Of a stretch of 54,640 bases of DNA, positions 28,798 to 34,816 are shown piece by piece (positions within the stretch are counted from its first letter, which is position 1; each line of letters starts with the position of its first letter). The notes beneath the pieces were generated by a model, which was not told the origin of the DNA, did no database searches, and saw only the letters and a program-made list of their open reading frames with translations. The stretch is from assembly GCA_036795065.1 (NCBI GenBank), contig DAIRFN010000002.1, forward strand, positions 1 to 54,640, in the 5' to 3' direction. Source of the stretch: Vicinamibacterales bacterium. Its GTDB lineage: Bacteria; Acidobacteriota; Vicinamibacteria; Vicinamibacterales; UBA2999. The position numbers and the translations under genes are program-made.

Positions 28798-30171
28798 TCA
28801 GATCCGCTTCAGCTTCTCAACCAGCGTGGTGCGCTTCAGCCCGAGCAGGCGCGCGGCCGCGCCTCGGTTGCCCTCGGTACGAACCAGCGCCTGGTCGATG
28901 AGGCGGCGCTCGAGGTCCGCGATGAGCCGCGGCAGATCCACGCCGGTCTCCGCCAGATGCGTGGCCGTCAGCGTGGGCGTCGCCTCTCCGCGCAGCTCGG
29001 GCGGCAGGTCGTCCACCTCGATGCGTCGTCGTCCGCCGCCCAGCGCCAGCGCGCGCTCGATGACGTTCTCGAGCTGGCGAACGTTGCCCGGCCATTCGTG
29101 CGCCATCAACCGCCGCATCGCGTCCTGCGAGACGACGAGGGGATCCTTGCCGTCGCCCGCGGGCTGAAGCTTGCCGATGAAGCGCGCCACGAGCAGAGGG
29201 ATGTCCTCGGGCCGCTCGCGGAGCGGAGGCAGCTGCACCGGGACGACGTTGAGGCGGTAGAAGAGGTCCTCGCGGAACGATCCCTCCTTCACCATGCGAG
29301 GCAGGTCGGCGTTGGTAGCGGCAATGACACGCACGTCCACCTTGATGGTGCGCGGATCGCCGATGCGCTCGAACTCGCGCTCCTGGAGCACCCGAAGCAG
29401 CTTCATCTGCAGCGAGGTCGGCATGGTGCCGACCTCGTCGAGAAACAGCGTCCCCTTGTCGGCCTGCTCGATGCGCCCCTGGCGCGACCCGACCGCGCCG
29501 GTGAAGGCGCCACGCACGTGACCGAAGAGCTCGGCCTCGAGCAGCGGCTCGGGGATGGCGCTGCAGTTGATGGCGACATAGCGTTGCTGGCGGCGCAGGC
29601 TGCACTGGTGAATGGCGCGCGCCACCATCTCCTTACCGGTGCCGGTCTCGCCGGTGATGAGCACCGTCGCGGCTGACGGGGCCACCGTCTCGATGAGCTG
29701 GTAAAGCGTCCGCATGGCCGCGCTCTTCCCCACCATGGCGCCGAGACCGAAGCGCTCGTCGAGCTGCTGGCGCAGGTACGCGTTCTCGTCCTTCAGCCGC
29801 CGCTGTTCGAGGGCCGTGTTGATGACGTGCAGCAGCTCGTCGAACTGGAATGGCTTGGCGACGAAATCGGCCGCCCCGCGCTTGATGGTGTCGACGGCGT
29901 CCTTTACCGTGGCGTAACCGGTGACGACGATGGCGATGATGCCGGGGTAGCGCTCGAGGGCGGCGTCGATGACGCCGCGGCCGTCGATGCCCGGCAGGCG
30001 CAGGTCAGACACGACGACGTCGAAGGCAAAGCCCTGCAGTTGTTCGAGGGCTTCCTCGCCCGAGGCGGCCTGCGCGACCTCGAACCCCTCGTCCACCAGC
30101 CGTTCCGCCACGACCCCCCTCAGCGCATCCTCGTCGTCGACCAGGAGGATATTTGTTTTGGAATCAGGCAT
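28798..30171 (-). CDS. Sigma-54-dependent response regulator (REC + AAA+ + Fis HTH; NtrC family)
   Basis: 457 aa. REC (ILLVDDEDALR...VVVSDLRLPGIDG), Walker A ITGETGTGKE, the GAFTGA motif (HVRGAFTGAVGS), and a C-terminal AARLLGLKRTTLVEKLKRI. Confidence 0.92.
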   Translation of the reverse strand: MPDSKTNILLVDDEDALRGVVAERLVDEGFEVAQAASGEEALEQLQGFAFDVVVSDLRLPGIDGRGVIDAALERYPGIIAIVVTGYATVKDAVDTIKRGAADFVAKPFQFDELLHVINTALEQRRLKDENAYLRQQLDERFGLGAMVGKSAAMRTLYQLIETVAPSAATVLITGETGTGKEMVARAIHQCSLRRQQRYVAINCSAIPEPLLEAELFGHVRGAFTGAVGSRQGRIEQADKGTLFLDEVGTMPTSLQMKLLRVLQEREFERIGDPRTIKVDVRVIAATNADLPRMVKEGSFREDLFYRLNVVPVQLPPLRERPEDIPLLVARFIGKLQPAGDGKDPLVVSQDAMRRLMAHEWPGNVRQLENVIERALALGGGRRRIEVDDLPPELRGEATPTLTATHLAETGVDLPRLIADLERRLIDQALVRTEGNRGAAARLLGLKRTTLVEKLKRI

Positions 30172-30180
30172 TTGCCGAGA

Positions 30181-30209
30181 TTGTCAAAGATTTGACAGCC
30201 GTTGTCAAG
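30181..30209. promoter_or_regulatory. Candidate operator: TTGTCAAA / TTTGACA / TTGTCAAG repeats in the divergent promoter region
   Basis: TTGTCAAA 30181-30188, inverted TTTGACA 30191-30197, TTGTCAAG 30202-30209. They start 10 nt upstream of the enhancer-binding-protein (EBP) gene start codon. Confidence 0.4.
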
Positions 30210-32188: not shown

Positions 32189-33534
32189 AACTGCATGCCA
32201 TCGATCCGCGGCATCTTCAGGTCGCAGACGATCAGCTCGTAGGACTGTTCGGCGAGGCGGGTCAGGCCCTCCTCGCCGTCACCCGCCCGATCCACGACGA
32301 AGCCGGCGTCGCCGAGCGCCTCGGACACGGCCACGGCCAGCGCCGGCTCGTCTTCCACCAGCAGCACGCGCGCGCCCTTGAACTGGTCCAGCGAGACCGA
32401 TCCGGTCTGCGGCGCGGCGGCGCCTGCCGGCGCCGGGCGCATGGCAACGGGAAGCTCCACGCAGAACGAGGCCCCGGTCTTCCCTTCCGACCTGACCCAG
32501 ATGCGCCCGCCGTGCTCCTGCACCAGCGCATAGGCCACGCTCAGCCCGAGACCGGTGCCCTTCCCCACTTCCTTCGTGGTGAAGAACGGGTCGAAGATCC
32601 GCGACTGCACCTCGGGCGGTACCCCCGGCCCGTCGTCGTTGATCTCGAGCAGCACGCTGCCCTTCTCGGGGTCGTGCCACGTGCGGACGACGAGCGTGCC
32701 ACGGCCGTGCGTGGTGAGCATGGCCTGCTCGGCGTTGATGACGAGGTTGAGCAGCACCTGCTTGATCTGGTGCGCGTCGGCAAAAACCTGCGGCAGCCCC
32801 GACGCGAGCGCCTCGATGAGGGTGATGTTCGAGACGCGCTGCTCGTAGGTGCGCAGCGCCAGCGTCTCCTTCACCACCTGGTTCACGTCCACCATCGCCC
32901 GTGTGCTCTGGCGCTTGCGCGCGAAGGTGAGCAGGTTGCGGACGATGCGCGCGGCGCGCTCGGCCTCGCCGAGGATGACGGCCAGCCCGCGCCGCGTCTT
33001 CTCGTCGGGGGGTTGGTCCGACAGCCGCTCGGCCCACGAGAGAATCGTCGCGAGCGGGTTGTTCAGCTCGTGGGCGACGCCGGAGATGGTGTGTCCGAGG
33101 GCGGCCATCTTCTCGGCCTGCAGGAGCTGGGCCTGGATGTCGCGCGACTGGTCGTCGAGCTTGCGCCGCTCGCCGACGTCGCGGAGCACGGCCTCGACAC
33201 GAAGGCCTTCCCCGGGAGCCCCCGGCTCCGCCGTGGCGGTCACCTCGACCCACGCGATCGAGTTGTCGAGCCGGCGGAGCCGCACCAGGTGATCGGAGAC
33301 GGCACCGGCCTTGCGAAGGCGGTCGAGGAGAGAGGCGCGCGCTTCGGGGTCCACGAAGCGGGGCGAATCGAACGGGCGCACCTGATCCCCGGCGTGCTCC
33401 GGGGGATAGCCGAGGATGAGCTTGAGGTGCGCGTTGACCGCGAGGGTGGTGGACGCGGCCGCGTCCAGGGTGCCGATGTAGAAGCCTTCGTGGGCCCCCT
33501 CGAAGAAGCGCGCGAAGCGCGCGACGTCCGTCAC
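32014..33534 (-). CDS. Cytoplasmic hybrid sensor histidine kinase (PAS-HisKA-HATPase_c-REC; no HPt domain)
   Basis: 506 aa. H-box GVAHELNNPLATI, N/G boxes (NLVINAEQAM, DDGPGVPPE, GTGLGLSV), and a C-terminal receiver (VLLVEDEPALA...ELIVCDLKMPRIDG...LSKPF). No TM segments. Confidence 0.9.
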   Translation of the reverse strand: MTDVARFARFFEGAHEGFYIGTLDAAASTTLAVNAHLKLILGYPPEHAGDQVRPFDSPRFVDPEARASLLDRLRKAGAVSDHLVRLRRLDNSIAWVEVTATAEPGAPGEGLRVEAVLRDVGERRKLDDQSRDIQAQLLQAEKMAALGHTISGVAHELNNPLATILSWAERLSDQPPDEKTRRGLAVILGEAERAARIVRNLLTFARKRQSTRAMVDVNQVVKETLALRTYEQRVSNITLIEALASGLPQVFADAHQIKQVLLNLVINAEQAMLTTHGRGTLVVRTWHDPEKGSVLLEINDDGPGVPPEVQSRIFDPFFTTKEVGKGTGLGLSVAYALVQEHGGRIWVRSEGKTGASFCVELPVAMRPAPAGAAAPQTGSVSLDQFKGARVLLVEDEPALAVAVSEALGDAGFVVDRAGDGEEGLTRLAEQSYELIVCDLKMPRIDGMQFYRAMAAATPALARRVIFVTGDVAGTDAERFLEETGCRWLSKPFRLGDLLRAARDTLS

Positions 33535-33601
33535 TACCCATCAATTTAGCGCATCTCCGGGTTTGACACGCTCCGGGTGTGCAGCTAGGCTCAGCTAGCG
33601 C

Positions 33602-34816
33602 ATGAAGATATTCGGCCGCCAGGACCTTCTGCCGCTCGTCGGACTCGCGGCAGCCATCGTGGTCCTGTTCTCGGCACCCATTTCACGCCTCTTTTCCTTT
33701 GCCCGCCAGGTCGAGGAACAAAGCGGGTTGGCGCTCGTGCCGGCACTCGTCATGCTGGCGGTGGTCCTCATCGTCCACGAGGTACGCAAGCGTTACCAGG
33801 CCCAGACCGACGCCGCAGTGGCCGCCACCATGCGGCGCGAGGCGGACATCCGCACCGAGGAGACGGAGCGGCTCGTCTCGTTCGGCCAGGCGCTTGGCCG
33901 CTCGAGTGACTTCGACGCCATCCGCGTCAGCATCGCGCGCTACCTGCCGGCGATTGCGGGCACCGAGCGGATATGGGTGCTCGTGCGGGAGGGCACGCAG
34001 TGGGAGGCGCTGGCCGGCGACACCCGCGGGAGCGAGGAGACGCTCAGATGGGGTGATCTCGCGGAGCAGCTGCTGGCCGGCCAGGCCGGCGATGGCGACG
34101 ACGCGCACGCGGTTGGCTTTCCGCTGATGGCGGGTTCGTCCGCGATCGGCGTACTCGGCGTCCGCATGACGGACGGCCCCTTGTTGCCGGAGCGCCGCCG
34201 GGCCGTGGAGGCCGCGGCGCCGCTGCTGGCCCTCTCTATCAGGCATGCGCAGCTCGCGCGCGAGGTGCGCGAGAACAGCGTGCGCGATGCGCTGACCGGC
34301 TGCTTCACGCGCGGACACGCCATGGAGGTGATCGACGCCGAGCTTCGGCGCGCGCGACGCAGCCAGGAGCCCGTGTCGCTGATTGTGTTCGACGTTGATC
34401 GTCTGAAGGACGTCAACGACCGCCACGGCCATCTCTGTGGCGACGCGGTGCTCGCCGTCATCGGCAAGCGCATGCGCGAGGTGCTGCGAGGCTCGGACCT
34501 GAAGTGCCGGTATTCGGGCGAGCAGTTCCTCGTGCTGCTGCCCGAGACGCCGGTGCCGGGCGCTCGGCGCGTGGCCGAGACGCTGAGGCGCGAGGTGGCC
34601 GACCGGCCGGTGCCATGGGCGGGCGAGGACCTGCGCATCACCGCGAGTTTCGGCCTGGCCCACGCGCTCCCCGGCGAGGTGAACGTCCAGGCGCTCATCG
34701 CCCGCGCTGACCATGCGCAGTACCGGGCCAAGGAAGAAGGCGGCAACTGCGTCCGCATTGCCGCCGACACGACACCGGTGGCCGCCGACGGCGACTCCCG
34801 TCACCACGCCCAGTGA
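33602..34816 (+). CDS. Membrane-anchored GGDEF-domain protein with a degenerate active site (SGEQF) and an intact RxxD I-site
   Basis: 404 aa with two N-terminal TM segments and a GAF-like middle region. The GGDEF domain has FDVDRLKDVNDRHGHLCGD, RGSD (34487-34498) and RYSGEQF (SGEQF at 34514-34528). Confidence 0.85.
   Translation: MKIFGRQDLLPLVGLAAAIVVLFSAPISRLFSFARQVEEQSGLALVPALVMLAVVLIVHEVRKRYQAQTDAAVAATMRREADIRTEETERLVSFGQALGRSSDFDAIRVSIARYLPAIAGTERIWVLVREGTQWEALAGDTRGSEETLRWGDLAEQLLAGQAGDGDDAHAVGFPLMAGSSAIGVLGVRMTDGPLLPERRRAVEAAAPLLALSIRHAQLAREVRENSVRDALTGCFTRGHAMEVIDAELRRARRSQEPVSLIVFDVDRLKDVNDRHGHLCGDAVLAVIGKRMREVLRGSDLKCRYSGEQFLVLLPETPVPGARRVAETLRREVADRPVPWAGEDLRITASFGLAHALPGEVNVQALIARADHAQYRAKEEGGNCVRIAADTTPVAADGDSRHHAQ

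Follow-up and report, generated by a model that had tools for sequence, protein, structure and literature searches.

A conserved five-gene regulatory module of Vicinamibacteria with a predicted sigma-54 to sigma-28-type cascade and a free-standing DHp-like mini-protein

Phosphorelays that end on a sigma-54 enhancer-binding protein (EBP) are known in comparable form from Vibrio, where LuxN/Q, LuxU and LuxO are used, and from Caulobacter. In the Caulobacter relay, the hybrid kinase ShkA acts through a small histidine protein, ShpA, on the sigma-54 EBP TacA (PMC7010744, PMC6969517). ChpT is a dimeric, kinase-like phosphotransferase (PMC3433190), and a DHp construct of HK853 lacking the CA domain was reported to interact with the response regulator and to have phosphatase activity in vitro (PMC7005713). 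In the flagellar hierarchy of Vibrio cholerae, fliA is a class II gene dependent on FlrA and sigma-54, and flgM is a class IV gene dependent on sigma-28 (PMC6504787). The locus compared with these systems here lies at positions 28798–34816 of a 54,640-nt stretch of DNA, called the window below, from a Vicinamibacterales bacterium (UBA2999; assembly GCA_036795065.1, contig DAIRFN010000002.1, positions 1–54,640 of the forward strand). Its wholly computational analysis points to a core of five genes, which encode an NtrC-type EBP, a small helix-turn-helix (HTH) protein, a mini-protein that consists of a DHp-like hairpin only, a FliA/WhiG-type sigma factor and a hybrid histidine kinase without an HPt domain.

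An earlier note, made from this DNA alone, had listed six signalling genes and a -24/-12 element in the island, and every one of them was recovered in, or close to, its place. All of the listed genes look like coding sequence, with a third-position GC content (GC3) of 0.84–0.92. The main comparison set consists of 80 species loci that contain the mini-protein gene. The order, orientation and spacing of the five genes, EBP(-), HTH(+), mini-protein(+), sigma(+) and kinase(-), are constant across these loci. Over the same set the EBP diverges from 92% identity down to some 60%, and neighbouring genes outside the five (pgl, dus, mfd, EamA, HD-OB and FabA) shift or vanish. Gene presence was counted only in those species loci that have enough flanking sequence, hence the denominators of 64 to 78. 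The HTH gene is present in 78/78 and the sigma gene in 76/76 of them, the EBP gene in 66 of 67 and the kinase gene in 73 of 75, as against 43/64 for the sixth gene, which encodes a GGDEF protein, and 40/68 for the flanking gene pgl.

Three loci of a distant clade (L086–L088) are rearranged. There, the five genes are found in the order sigma(+), HTH(+), mini-protein(+), followed by EBP(-) and kinase(-), so that the kinase and EBP genes adjoin each other in the same orientation, and the GGDEF gene is absent. Retention of the five genes through this rearrangement is the strongest evidence, drawn from comparison of loci, for a functional unit. The co-occurrence proposed for six genes is therefore borne out for five, in the main set as well as in the distant clade, and fails for the GGDEF gene. 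Chance co-localisation of the five genes was considered and is ruled out by the intact set after rearrangement.

The sigma gene is preceded by a predicted sigma-54 promoter, TGGCAT-N5-TTGC (TGGCATCGAGGTTGC, 31099–31113, plus strand), whose -24/-12 element is placed 37 nt upstream of the ATG at 31151. It is the sole match to TGGCA-N6-TTGC in the 54.6 kb, for which 0.33 matches are expected by chance, and shuffling of the window gave at least one match in 29 of 100 cases. The element alone is thus without significance and becomes compelling because it is conserved across loci. TGG[CT]A-N6-TTGC is found upstream of the sigma gene in 63–68 of the 80 loci, and 11 of 12 further loci inspected, in which the exact match is missing, retain the element with an altered first base or -12 box. 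The distant clade has a perfect TGGCAC-N5-TTGC upstream of its sigma gene. All the marks of a sigma-54 promoter, namely GG-N10-GC, the TGGCAC-N5-TTGCW context and an upstream activating sequence, can be read from the locus.

The upstream activating sequence comprises two palindromes, at 30932–30945 (GTCAAATGGTTGAC) and 30964–30977 (GTCAAAGCCGTGAC), which are 32 bp apart and lie 167 and 135 bp upstream of the -24 box. This paired layout is that of the NtrC sites at glnAp2. Only three palindromes with at most one mismatch occur in the window, all inside the island, the third of them (with one mismatch) being 32 bp from the second exact copy. The palindrome occurs at clustered distances from the -24 element, either 135/167 or 147/179 bp, in 67 of 71 loci, and as a pair spaced by 31–33 bp in 37 loci; only 5 exact palindromes were found elsewhere in 1.23 Mb. 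The enhancer of the distant clade is again a palindrome pair, 33 bp apart and 144/177 bp upstream of -24. No further -24/-12 element recurring at another position was found within 10 kb. Because these cis-elements are conserved, there is strong support for the predicted step in which the EBP, with sigma-54, activates the sigma gene, in agreement with the earlier note, which had placed a well-spaced -24/-12 element in front of the sigma gene and had drawn the same step from it.

The EBP (28798–30171, minus strand) contains the Pfam domains Response_reg (REC), Sigma54_activat, AAA_lid_14 and HTH_8, the latter a Fis-type HTH, and its translation has an intact GAFTGA motif, as had been noted before. 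Its best NCBIfam matches stay below their cut-offs (AtoC, 474 versus 714; NtrC, 427 versus 559). Since no equivalog cut-off is reached, its profile matches place it in the NtrC-type family without orthology to a named regulator. At the 5' end of its gene lies an exact GTCAA-N4-TTGAC palindrome, GTCAAAGATTTGAC (30183–30196), a candidate operator of the EBP. Two exact matches to this pattern are found in the window versus 0.02 expected, and the region between the divergent EBP and HTH genes contains the palindrome, with at most one mismatch, in 57 of 67 loci. In two of the three rearranged loci (L087 and L088) it is located directly in front of the EBP gene, after the stop of the kinase gene. 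The palindrome thus travels with the EBP gene, which suggests that the EBP binds it and autoregulates. A sigma-70-like match for the EBP gene, TTGACA-17-GACAAT, runs from 30208 to 30180 on the minus strand and is overlapped by the palindrome; it ends about 9 nt before the start codon, so that the transcript should have hardly any leader or none.

The HTH and mini-protein genes are preceded by a sigma-28 (FliA/WhiG)-type promoter, CTAAT-N16-CCGATA (CTAATCCCACGGTGGCAGGAACCGATA, 30219–30245, plus strand). It fits the pattern TAAA-N15-GCCGATAA that is cognate to FliA/WhiG factors, and no other site in the window comes within one mismatch of that pattern. CCGATA is found in the same region in 80/80 loci, with CTAAT, CTAAA or CTA[CT]A 16–17 nt upstream of it in most of them and a spacer whose sequence varies freely. 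Elsewhere the motif was found only twice in 1.46 Mb, scanned on both strands (2.9 Mb of strand), and no second sigma-28-type promoter was found to recur within 10 kb. The operon is almost certainly transcribed from this predicted promoter by the adjacent sigma factor. A promoter of this type is missing from the distant clade, in which the HTH and mini-protein genes directly follow the sigma gene and are probably co-transcribed with it. In both layouts, as predicted from gene order and promoters, production of the mini-protein goes together with that of the sigma factor. A conserved CCCAGGG(T/C)(T/C)CCCAGCCCCGGGGTAGA element is seen in the spacer between the sigma and HTH genes of this clade.

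The position of the sigma-28-type promoter makes the mini-protein a predicted output of the cascade, in a feedback position. The earlier note had read the island as a linear path in which the mini-protein links the kinase to the EBP; a purely upstream position of this protein does not agree with the promoter in all 80 loci, nor with its place downstream of sigma in the distant clade, and the interpretation as a relay plus cascade is, overall, partly supported. The transcriptional cascade itself, in which the EBP at a sigma-54 promoter would turn on the FliA-type sigma gene and this factor would in turn serve the sigma-28-type promoter of the HTH and mini-protein genes, is highly probable.

The first gene of the operon encodes a small DNA-binding protein of the HTH_17/excisionase type (Pfam HTH_17, NCBIfam TIGR01764; 30331–30525, plus strand), which has 65 residues when translated from GTG 30331. 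This start is more likely than the one at 30355 given earlier, with a GGAGG 8 nt upstream of it, and the resulting N-terminus, MERQTVSIMKAC, aligns with the called gene start in distant relatives; the presence of the gene had been predicted correctly. The core MKACELVGVSRRTIYNW..G.VEYVRTAGGS.RIF.D.LWR is nearly invariant in both clades. The protein scores 24.4 bits with the BldC family (NF033787), below the cut-off of 77, and a homologue search gave, among the best 120 listed, only relatives of at least 81% identity and no distant context. Two database proteins, P0125 and P0162, appear to be natural fusions of the HTH and mini-proteins in one polypeptide; they may be real, pointing to a physical partnership, or artefacts of frameshifts or gene calling. 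The terminator scan gave no terminator after the mini-protein gene. A perfect 7-bp GC-rich hairpin without a T-tract, GGTCGGC-GCCCT-GCCGACC, occurs at 30806–30824, 22 nt past the mini-protein stop, and may be a non-canonical terminator between the operon and the enhancer of the sigma gene.

The sigma factor (31151–32188, plus strand, with a possible start at ATG 31163) passes the cut-off of TIGR02479 FliA_WhiG with 205.5 versus 189.6 bits, which confirms its assignment to this family, and has the Pfam regions Sigma70_r2 and r4 above and r3 just below cut-off. The TIGR02479 match spans residues 20–235 only and is followed by a C-terminal extension of roughly 100 residues. The flagellar or chemotaxis regulon context usual for FliA/WhiG factors is not seen here. 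No flagellar or chemotaxis genes were found among the larger open reading frames of the 54.6-kb window, as the earlier note had already remarked, and the genes called on those related contigs that were inspected, both window-type and distant-clade, include none either. Part of the extension after region 4 (window about 31870–32020, residues about 240–290) is conserved as A..LR.AILAF..KP.MAKA.LP...VVVPY, has no Pfam match; FliA/WhiG factors do not usually have such a part, which may serve autoinhibition or the binding of a partner. At 32014–32188, the last 175 nt (58 codons) of the sigma gene are antisense to the region coding for the kinase REC domain, in a phase where the third codon positions of both frames coincide. 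The sigma sequences VSRAAR and VAAAIAR* mirror RAARDT and YRAMAAAT of the kinase, and the TAG stop of sigma sits on a Tyr codon of the kinase. The overlap is exactly 175 nt in most species, and elsewhere sigma stops earlier, at ..AVAAAR*; it looks like the product of stop-codon loss with read-through (overprinting).

The DHp-only mini-protein (30530–30784, plus strand) has 84 residues, or perhaps 72 from the ATG at 30566, and is predicted to be a helical hairpin with an invariant His30. Its reading frame has a GC3 of 0.91, and no match at threshold was found in Pfam or NCBIfam. A homologue search gave 2542 proteins, the best 120 of which have 56–111 residues; an exhaustive profile search of 1.84 billion representatives at E <=0.001 gave only 352 clusters at 50% identity, the best 150 having 64–182 residues. 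The family is encoded in 445 species-representative genomes, almost all of them metagenome-assembled genomes (MAGs) of Vicinamibacteria or other Acidobacteriota. A core of about 55 residues is conserved, in which DLRSLIHRLNNQLGVILAHAELLEAKAPDEGQRARATQVVSAALQAM..AREIR stands out as highly conserved, and the invariant residues include His30, Leu32, Asn33, Asn34, Gln35, Leu36, Gly37 and His42. The median ratio of non-synonymous to synonymous substitution rates (dN/dS) is 0.21 against 77 orthologues. By these measures the mini-protein is a real, constrained family. A distant subfamily, of 114–174 residues, is extended at the N-terminus by the conserved motif DLSRW[IL]GPLSPAF and, after it, a linker of low complexity. 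His42 is replaced there by Tyr, which leaves His30 as the universal histidine.

Several comparisons relate this protein to the DHp domain of the neighbouring kinase. BLASTP aligns the two with 37% identity over 49 ungapped residues (E 1e-6), hhalign gives a probability of 91% (E 1.1e-6) with His on His, and the loop of the hairpin has the same length in both. In the HisKA model (PF00512), His30 occupies column 11, the column of the phospho-acceptor, with a score for the window protein of 16.1 bits (E 0.011) versus the gathering cut-off of 26.9. The AlphaFold2 model consists of two helices, 17–48 and 53–83, with a mean predicted local distance difference test score (pLDDT) of 84 and 54 residues at pLDDT >=90. 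Its fold matches of lowest root-mean-square deviation (rmsd) are DHp domains (GacS/RetS, ERS1 and ShkA; 1.1–1.7 A), which are suggestive only; searched against PDB sequences, the family profile found one match, at E 0.5, of no relevance. On these alignments the mini-protein is truly homologous to DHp domains, presumably as a CA-less paralogue of the DHp in the neighbouring kinase, as its earlier description as an H-box-only protein had anticipated.

No Hpt match was found for the mini-protein at E up to 10. The C-terminal CA-like domain that follows the hairpin in Spo0B and ChpT is absent from its 72–84 residues, which form two helices only. It is accordingly placed, by fold prediction and profile searches, neither with the HPt proteins nor, since a second domain is missing, with the Spo0B/ChpT type. 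The most conserved positions are H+4, +7, +8, +11, +12, +15 and the start of helix 2, which, judged by the HK853-RR468 complex, presumably make up the receiver-docking face of the DHp. H+4 (Asn34) is always Asn; at H+1, members of the main clade have Arg or Lys and those of the distant subfamily Thr. Helix 1 of the mini-protein does not vary, nor does helix 1 of the receivers change in step between clades, which leaves no usable signal for covariation of the mini-protein with either receiver domain.

The hybrid kinase (32014–33534, minus strand) is predicted to be soluble. The domain order PAS-HisKA-HATPase-REC without HPt proposed for it holds for HisKA, HATPase_c and REC, the last ending at residue 501 of 506, and no Hpt match was found at E up to 0.01; the PAS domain appears only below threshold, with E-values of 0.006–0.02 for four PAS families. 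The H-box reads AHELNNPL. Comparison with the FATGUY and Rec_inter criteria (10.1101/2022.06.03.494635) gave no clear class for the kinase receiver. In one of the rearranged loci, L086, heptamer tandem repeats, (GAAGTAG)n, (AGCCGAT)n-like and (GGGGTTG)n, occur in the intergenic regions on either side of the kinase gene, at about 11963–12077 and 13653–13800 of that locus (the gap between the kinase and EBP genes and the region upstream of the kinase).

In the favoured reading, to which a probability of roughly 0.45 can be given, the mini-protein is a reversible shuttle between the receivers of the kinase and the EBP, with feedback. The soluble hybrid kinase would sense a cytoplasmic cue and control phosphorylation of the EBP. 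The EBP would bind the paired GTCAA-N4-TTGAC sites, about 135–180 bp upstream of the sigma-54 promoter, and activate the sigma gene, and through the same palindrome at its own 5' end it would regulate itself. The new sigma factor would then transcribe the adjacent HTH/mini-protein operon. In the last and least certain step, the mini-protein would dimerise into a four-helix bundle and dock receiver domains, and phosphoryl groups would move reversibly through His30 between the kinase receiver and the EBP receiver. The supply of the mini-protein would depend on the output of the cascade, which closes a feedback loop whose sign would be set by the kinase or phosphatase mode of the kinase; in a reversible relay, feeding and draining are one activity, and the state of the kinase sets the direction. 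The shuttle is favoured because the trio of an HPt-less hybrid kinase, a small histidine protein and a sigma-54 EBP is that of ShkA-ShpA-TacA, and because the histidine is invariant and the presumed receiver-docking face conserved.

Several points weigh against a shuttle of this kind. Spo0B and ChpT keep an Asp at H+1, and in the mini-protein this position is never Asp or Glu in any member examined. The signature H-[not D/E]-x-x-N is that of kinase-minus, phosphatase-plus HisKA domains (PMC7005713). HisKA is the top Pfam family for 26 of 32 members but stays below threshold (best E 7.5e-4), and Foldseek against the PDB gave no significant E-value, which is explained by the shortness of the hairpin used as query. 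A relay that depends on a component produced by its own activity would have to start from basal expression of that component. The small HTH protein could bind the palindrome instead of the EBP. Direct transfer from kinase to EBP is a live alternative, because the two genes adjoin and are co-oriented in the distant clade.

This last arrangement fits a classical pair with an induced phosphatase, in which phosphate passes straight from the kinase DHp to the EBP, the kinase receiver serves as a sink or regulator, and the sigma-induced mini-protein hydrolyses EBP~P as a DHp-only phosphatase, giving a negative feedback (pulse) as FlgM does for sigma-28. The H-box of the mini-protein, with its His and the Asn at H+4 and no acidic H+1, agrees with such a role: in HisKA domains the acid serves autophosphorylation and Thr/Asn the phosphatase activity, and CA-less HK853 is a phosphatase in vitro, although the CA domain and nucleotide strongly stimulate this activity (PMC7005713) and a DHp-only protein has no CA. 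Its gene is placed under the output promoter of the cascade, or just downstream of sigma in the distant clade, and flgM is likewise sigma-28-dependent (PMC6504787). A separate phosphatase seems redundant, however, as the kinase H-box (HELNN) already has the phosphatase motif, and the strictly conserved kinase receiver would be left without a role; this explanation is possible but rather unlikely.

The likeness to the kinase DHp, which at 37% identity is ungapped over the hairpin and preserves the loop length, would also suit a decoy: by forming heterodimers with the kinase DHp, the mini-protein would inhibit the kinase or redirect it, as RetS blocks GacS. An inhibitor could well be expressed in dependence on output, and the DHp domains of the GacS-RetS co-complex (7n0e) are among the best low-rmsd fold matches. 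An inhibitor acting by dimerisation only does not need invariant His30, Asn33 and Asn34 on the solvent-exposed H-box face, and paralogous DHp domains usually evolve to avoid heterodimers, so that the decoy is quite improbable. Very improbable is an action of the mini-protein or the HTH protein on the FliA-type sigma as an anti-sigma factor or partner, which would make the H-box resemblance vestigial. Genes of anti-sigma factors are typically linked to, or dependent on, the sigma gene in the way that the HTH and mini-protein genes are in both gene orders, as is the sigma-28-dependent flgM (PMC6504787), and the sigma factor has an unexplained conserved extension. Up to an E-value of 10, neither FlgM nor another anti-sigma family was matched by the members examined, the c-di-GMP motif of RsiG was not found by eye, and conservation centres on the phospho-acceptor His and the receiver-docking face. 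Carried furthest, the shuttle reading would make the mini-protein a third structural class of histidine phosphotransfer protein, a CA-less DHp dimer beside HPt and Spo0B/ChpT, which carries phosphate between the hybrid-kinase receiver and the sigma-54 activator and whose sigma-28-type-dependent supply creates a self-reinforcing, possibly bistable, switch of a non-flagellar programme; this extended proposal is tentative and rather doubtful.

The sixth gene of the island (33602–34816, plus strand) encodes a membrane GGDEF protein and is best regarded as an accessory neighbour. Its active site is degenerate, SGEQF in place of the GG[D/E]EF of active diguanylate cyclases, and its RxxD I-site is intact. 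Among the orthologues, 35 of 52 have GGEEF or GGDEF and 15 of 52 a degenerate site (SGEQF, AGEQF or similar), with RxxD retained; the latter are apparently the close relatives of the window. This suggests a recent shift from a cyclase to a c-di-GMP receptor. The degenerate site described in the earlier note is thus present, and membership of the core is contradicted by the presence of the gene in only 43/64 loci, its absence from the distant clade and the mostly canonical orthologues.

Further signalling genes are found nearby, a GAF-GAF-SpoIIE (PP2C) phosphatase at 37215–39035, a GAF-containing protein at 43218–44411 and a second SpoIIE phosphatase at 49557–50750, which may be further signalling or partner-switching components. 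Among the remaining genes of the window are housekeeping genes (yidC, mnmE, parAB, ATP synthase, mfd, surA, dus, glnA and nuoG). As yidC, mnmE, parA and parB lie at 2100–10001, the gene content indicates a position of the window near the chromosomal replication origin. Rfam gave no match in 27500–35500. The Vicinamibacterales-type locus, at 58–87% identity, is also found in public MAGs titled Bifidobacteriaceae, Acidimicrobiia, Gemmatimonadaceae or Cyanobacteriota (L007, L015, L017, L019, L022, L047, L060 and L079); these titles are probably wrong, or the bins contaminated.

Vicinamibacteria are abundant in soil and almost unstudied genetically. The module represents a compact circuit in this class, in which sequence analysis predicts an operator, an enhancer and promoters of two types, and its DHp-only protein is a new small-protein family without a Pfam or NCBIfam model. 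Should the mini-protein transfer phosphate, it would show that a histidine kinase, reduced to its minimal unit, is able to act as a shuttle by itself; as a phosphatase or a decoy it would be a small-protein feedback regulator of a new kind in two-component signalling. A third-class shuttle, if true, would place a switch of this kind over a non-flagellar programme in one of the most abundant classes of soil bacteria. The sigma-54-to-sigma-28 cascade is textbook in polar flagellates (PMC6504787), and the component families and the logic of the cascade are known. No described stand-alone or DHp-only natural family was found in the open-access literature, which is weak evidence of absence. Likewise without a described counterpart in that literature are the place of such a protein as a cascade output and the flagellar-style architecture without flagellar genes.

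The hierarchy of Vibrio cholerae is similar in that an EBP and sigma-54 act on a sigma-28-type gene, which in turn acts on a feedback gene. The present locus would be a repurposed form of this architecture, including the feedback gene under sigma-28-type control, and neither in the window nor in the loci examined were flagellar or chemotaxis genes found. Its feedback genes encode the HTH and DHp-only proteins and not FlgM, and its sigma factor has a C-terminal extension. FliA/WhiG-family factors outside motility are represented by WhiG of Streptomyces, which acts with RsiG and c-di-GMP, and by sigma-28 of Chlamydia. The resemblance to WhiG extends to a nearby GGDEF gene and a small gene for an excisionase-type, distantly BldC-like HTH protein; the differences are the lack of an RsiG motif on inspection by eye, the low BldC score (24.4 versus 77 bits) and a sigma gene placed on a sigma-54 promoter.

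Like ShkA-ShpA-TacA and LuxU-LuxO, the locus combines an HPt-less hybrid kinase, a separate small histidine protein and a terminal NtrC-type EBP that drives a further regulator; ShkA is also linked to c-di-GMP. It departs from these relays in having a sigma factor as output, a small protein whose own gene is, by prediction, served by the cascade, and genes that cluster in a conserved way. With its DHp-type hairpin, the mini-protein also differs in fold from ShpA and LuxU, which are monomeric four-helix bundles of the HPt kind. In this it is closer to Spo0B and ChpT, which have a DHp-like hairpin with a transfer His, no autokinase activity, and shuttle phosphate between receivers, but both also possess a C-terminal CA-like alpha/beta domain and an Asp at H+1. 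The mini-protein has neither, and its H+1 is Arg/Lys or Thr. RetS-GacS (PDB code 7n0e) offers the example of a DHp acting on the DHp of another kinase, and matches the mini-protein with an rmsd of 1.3–1.5 A over 54–55 residues, at Foldseek E-values that are not significant; RetS, however, is a full multidomain kinase. The isolated DHp of EnvZ, its domain A, performs phosphotransfer in vitro. The EnvZ and HK853 DHp constructs are laboratory truncations, whereas the mini-protein is the product of a natural, conserved and free-standing gene.

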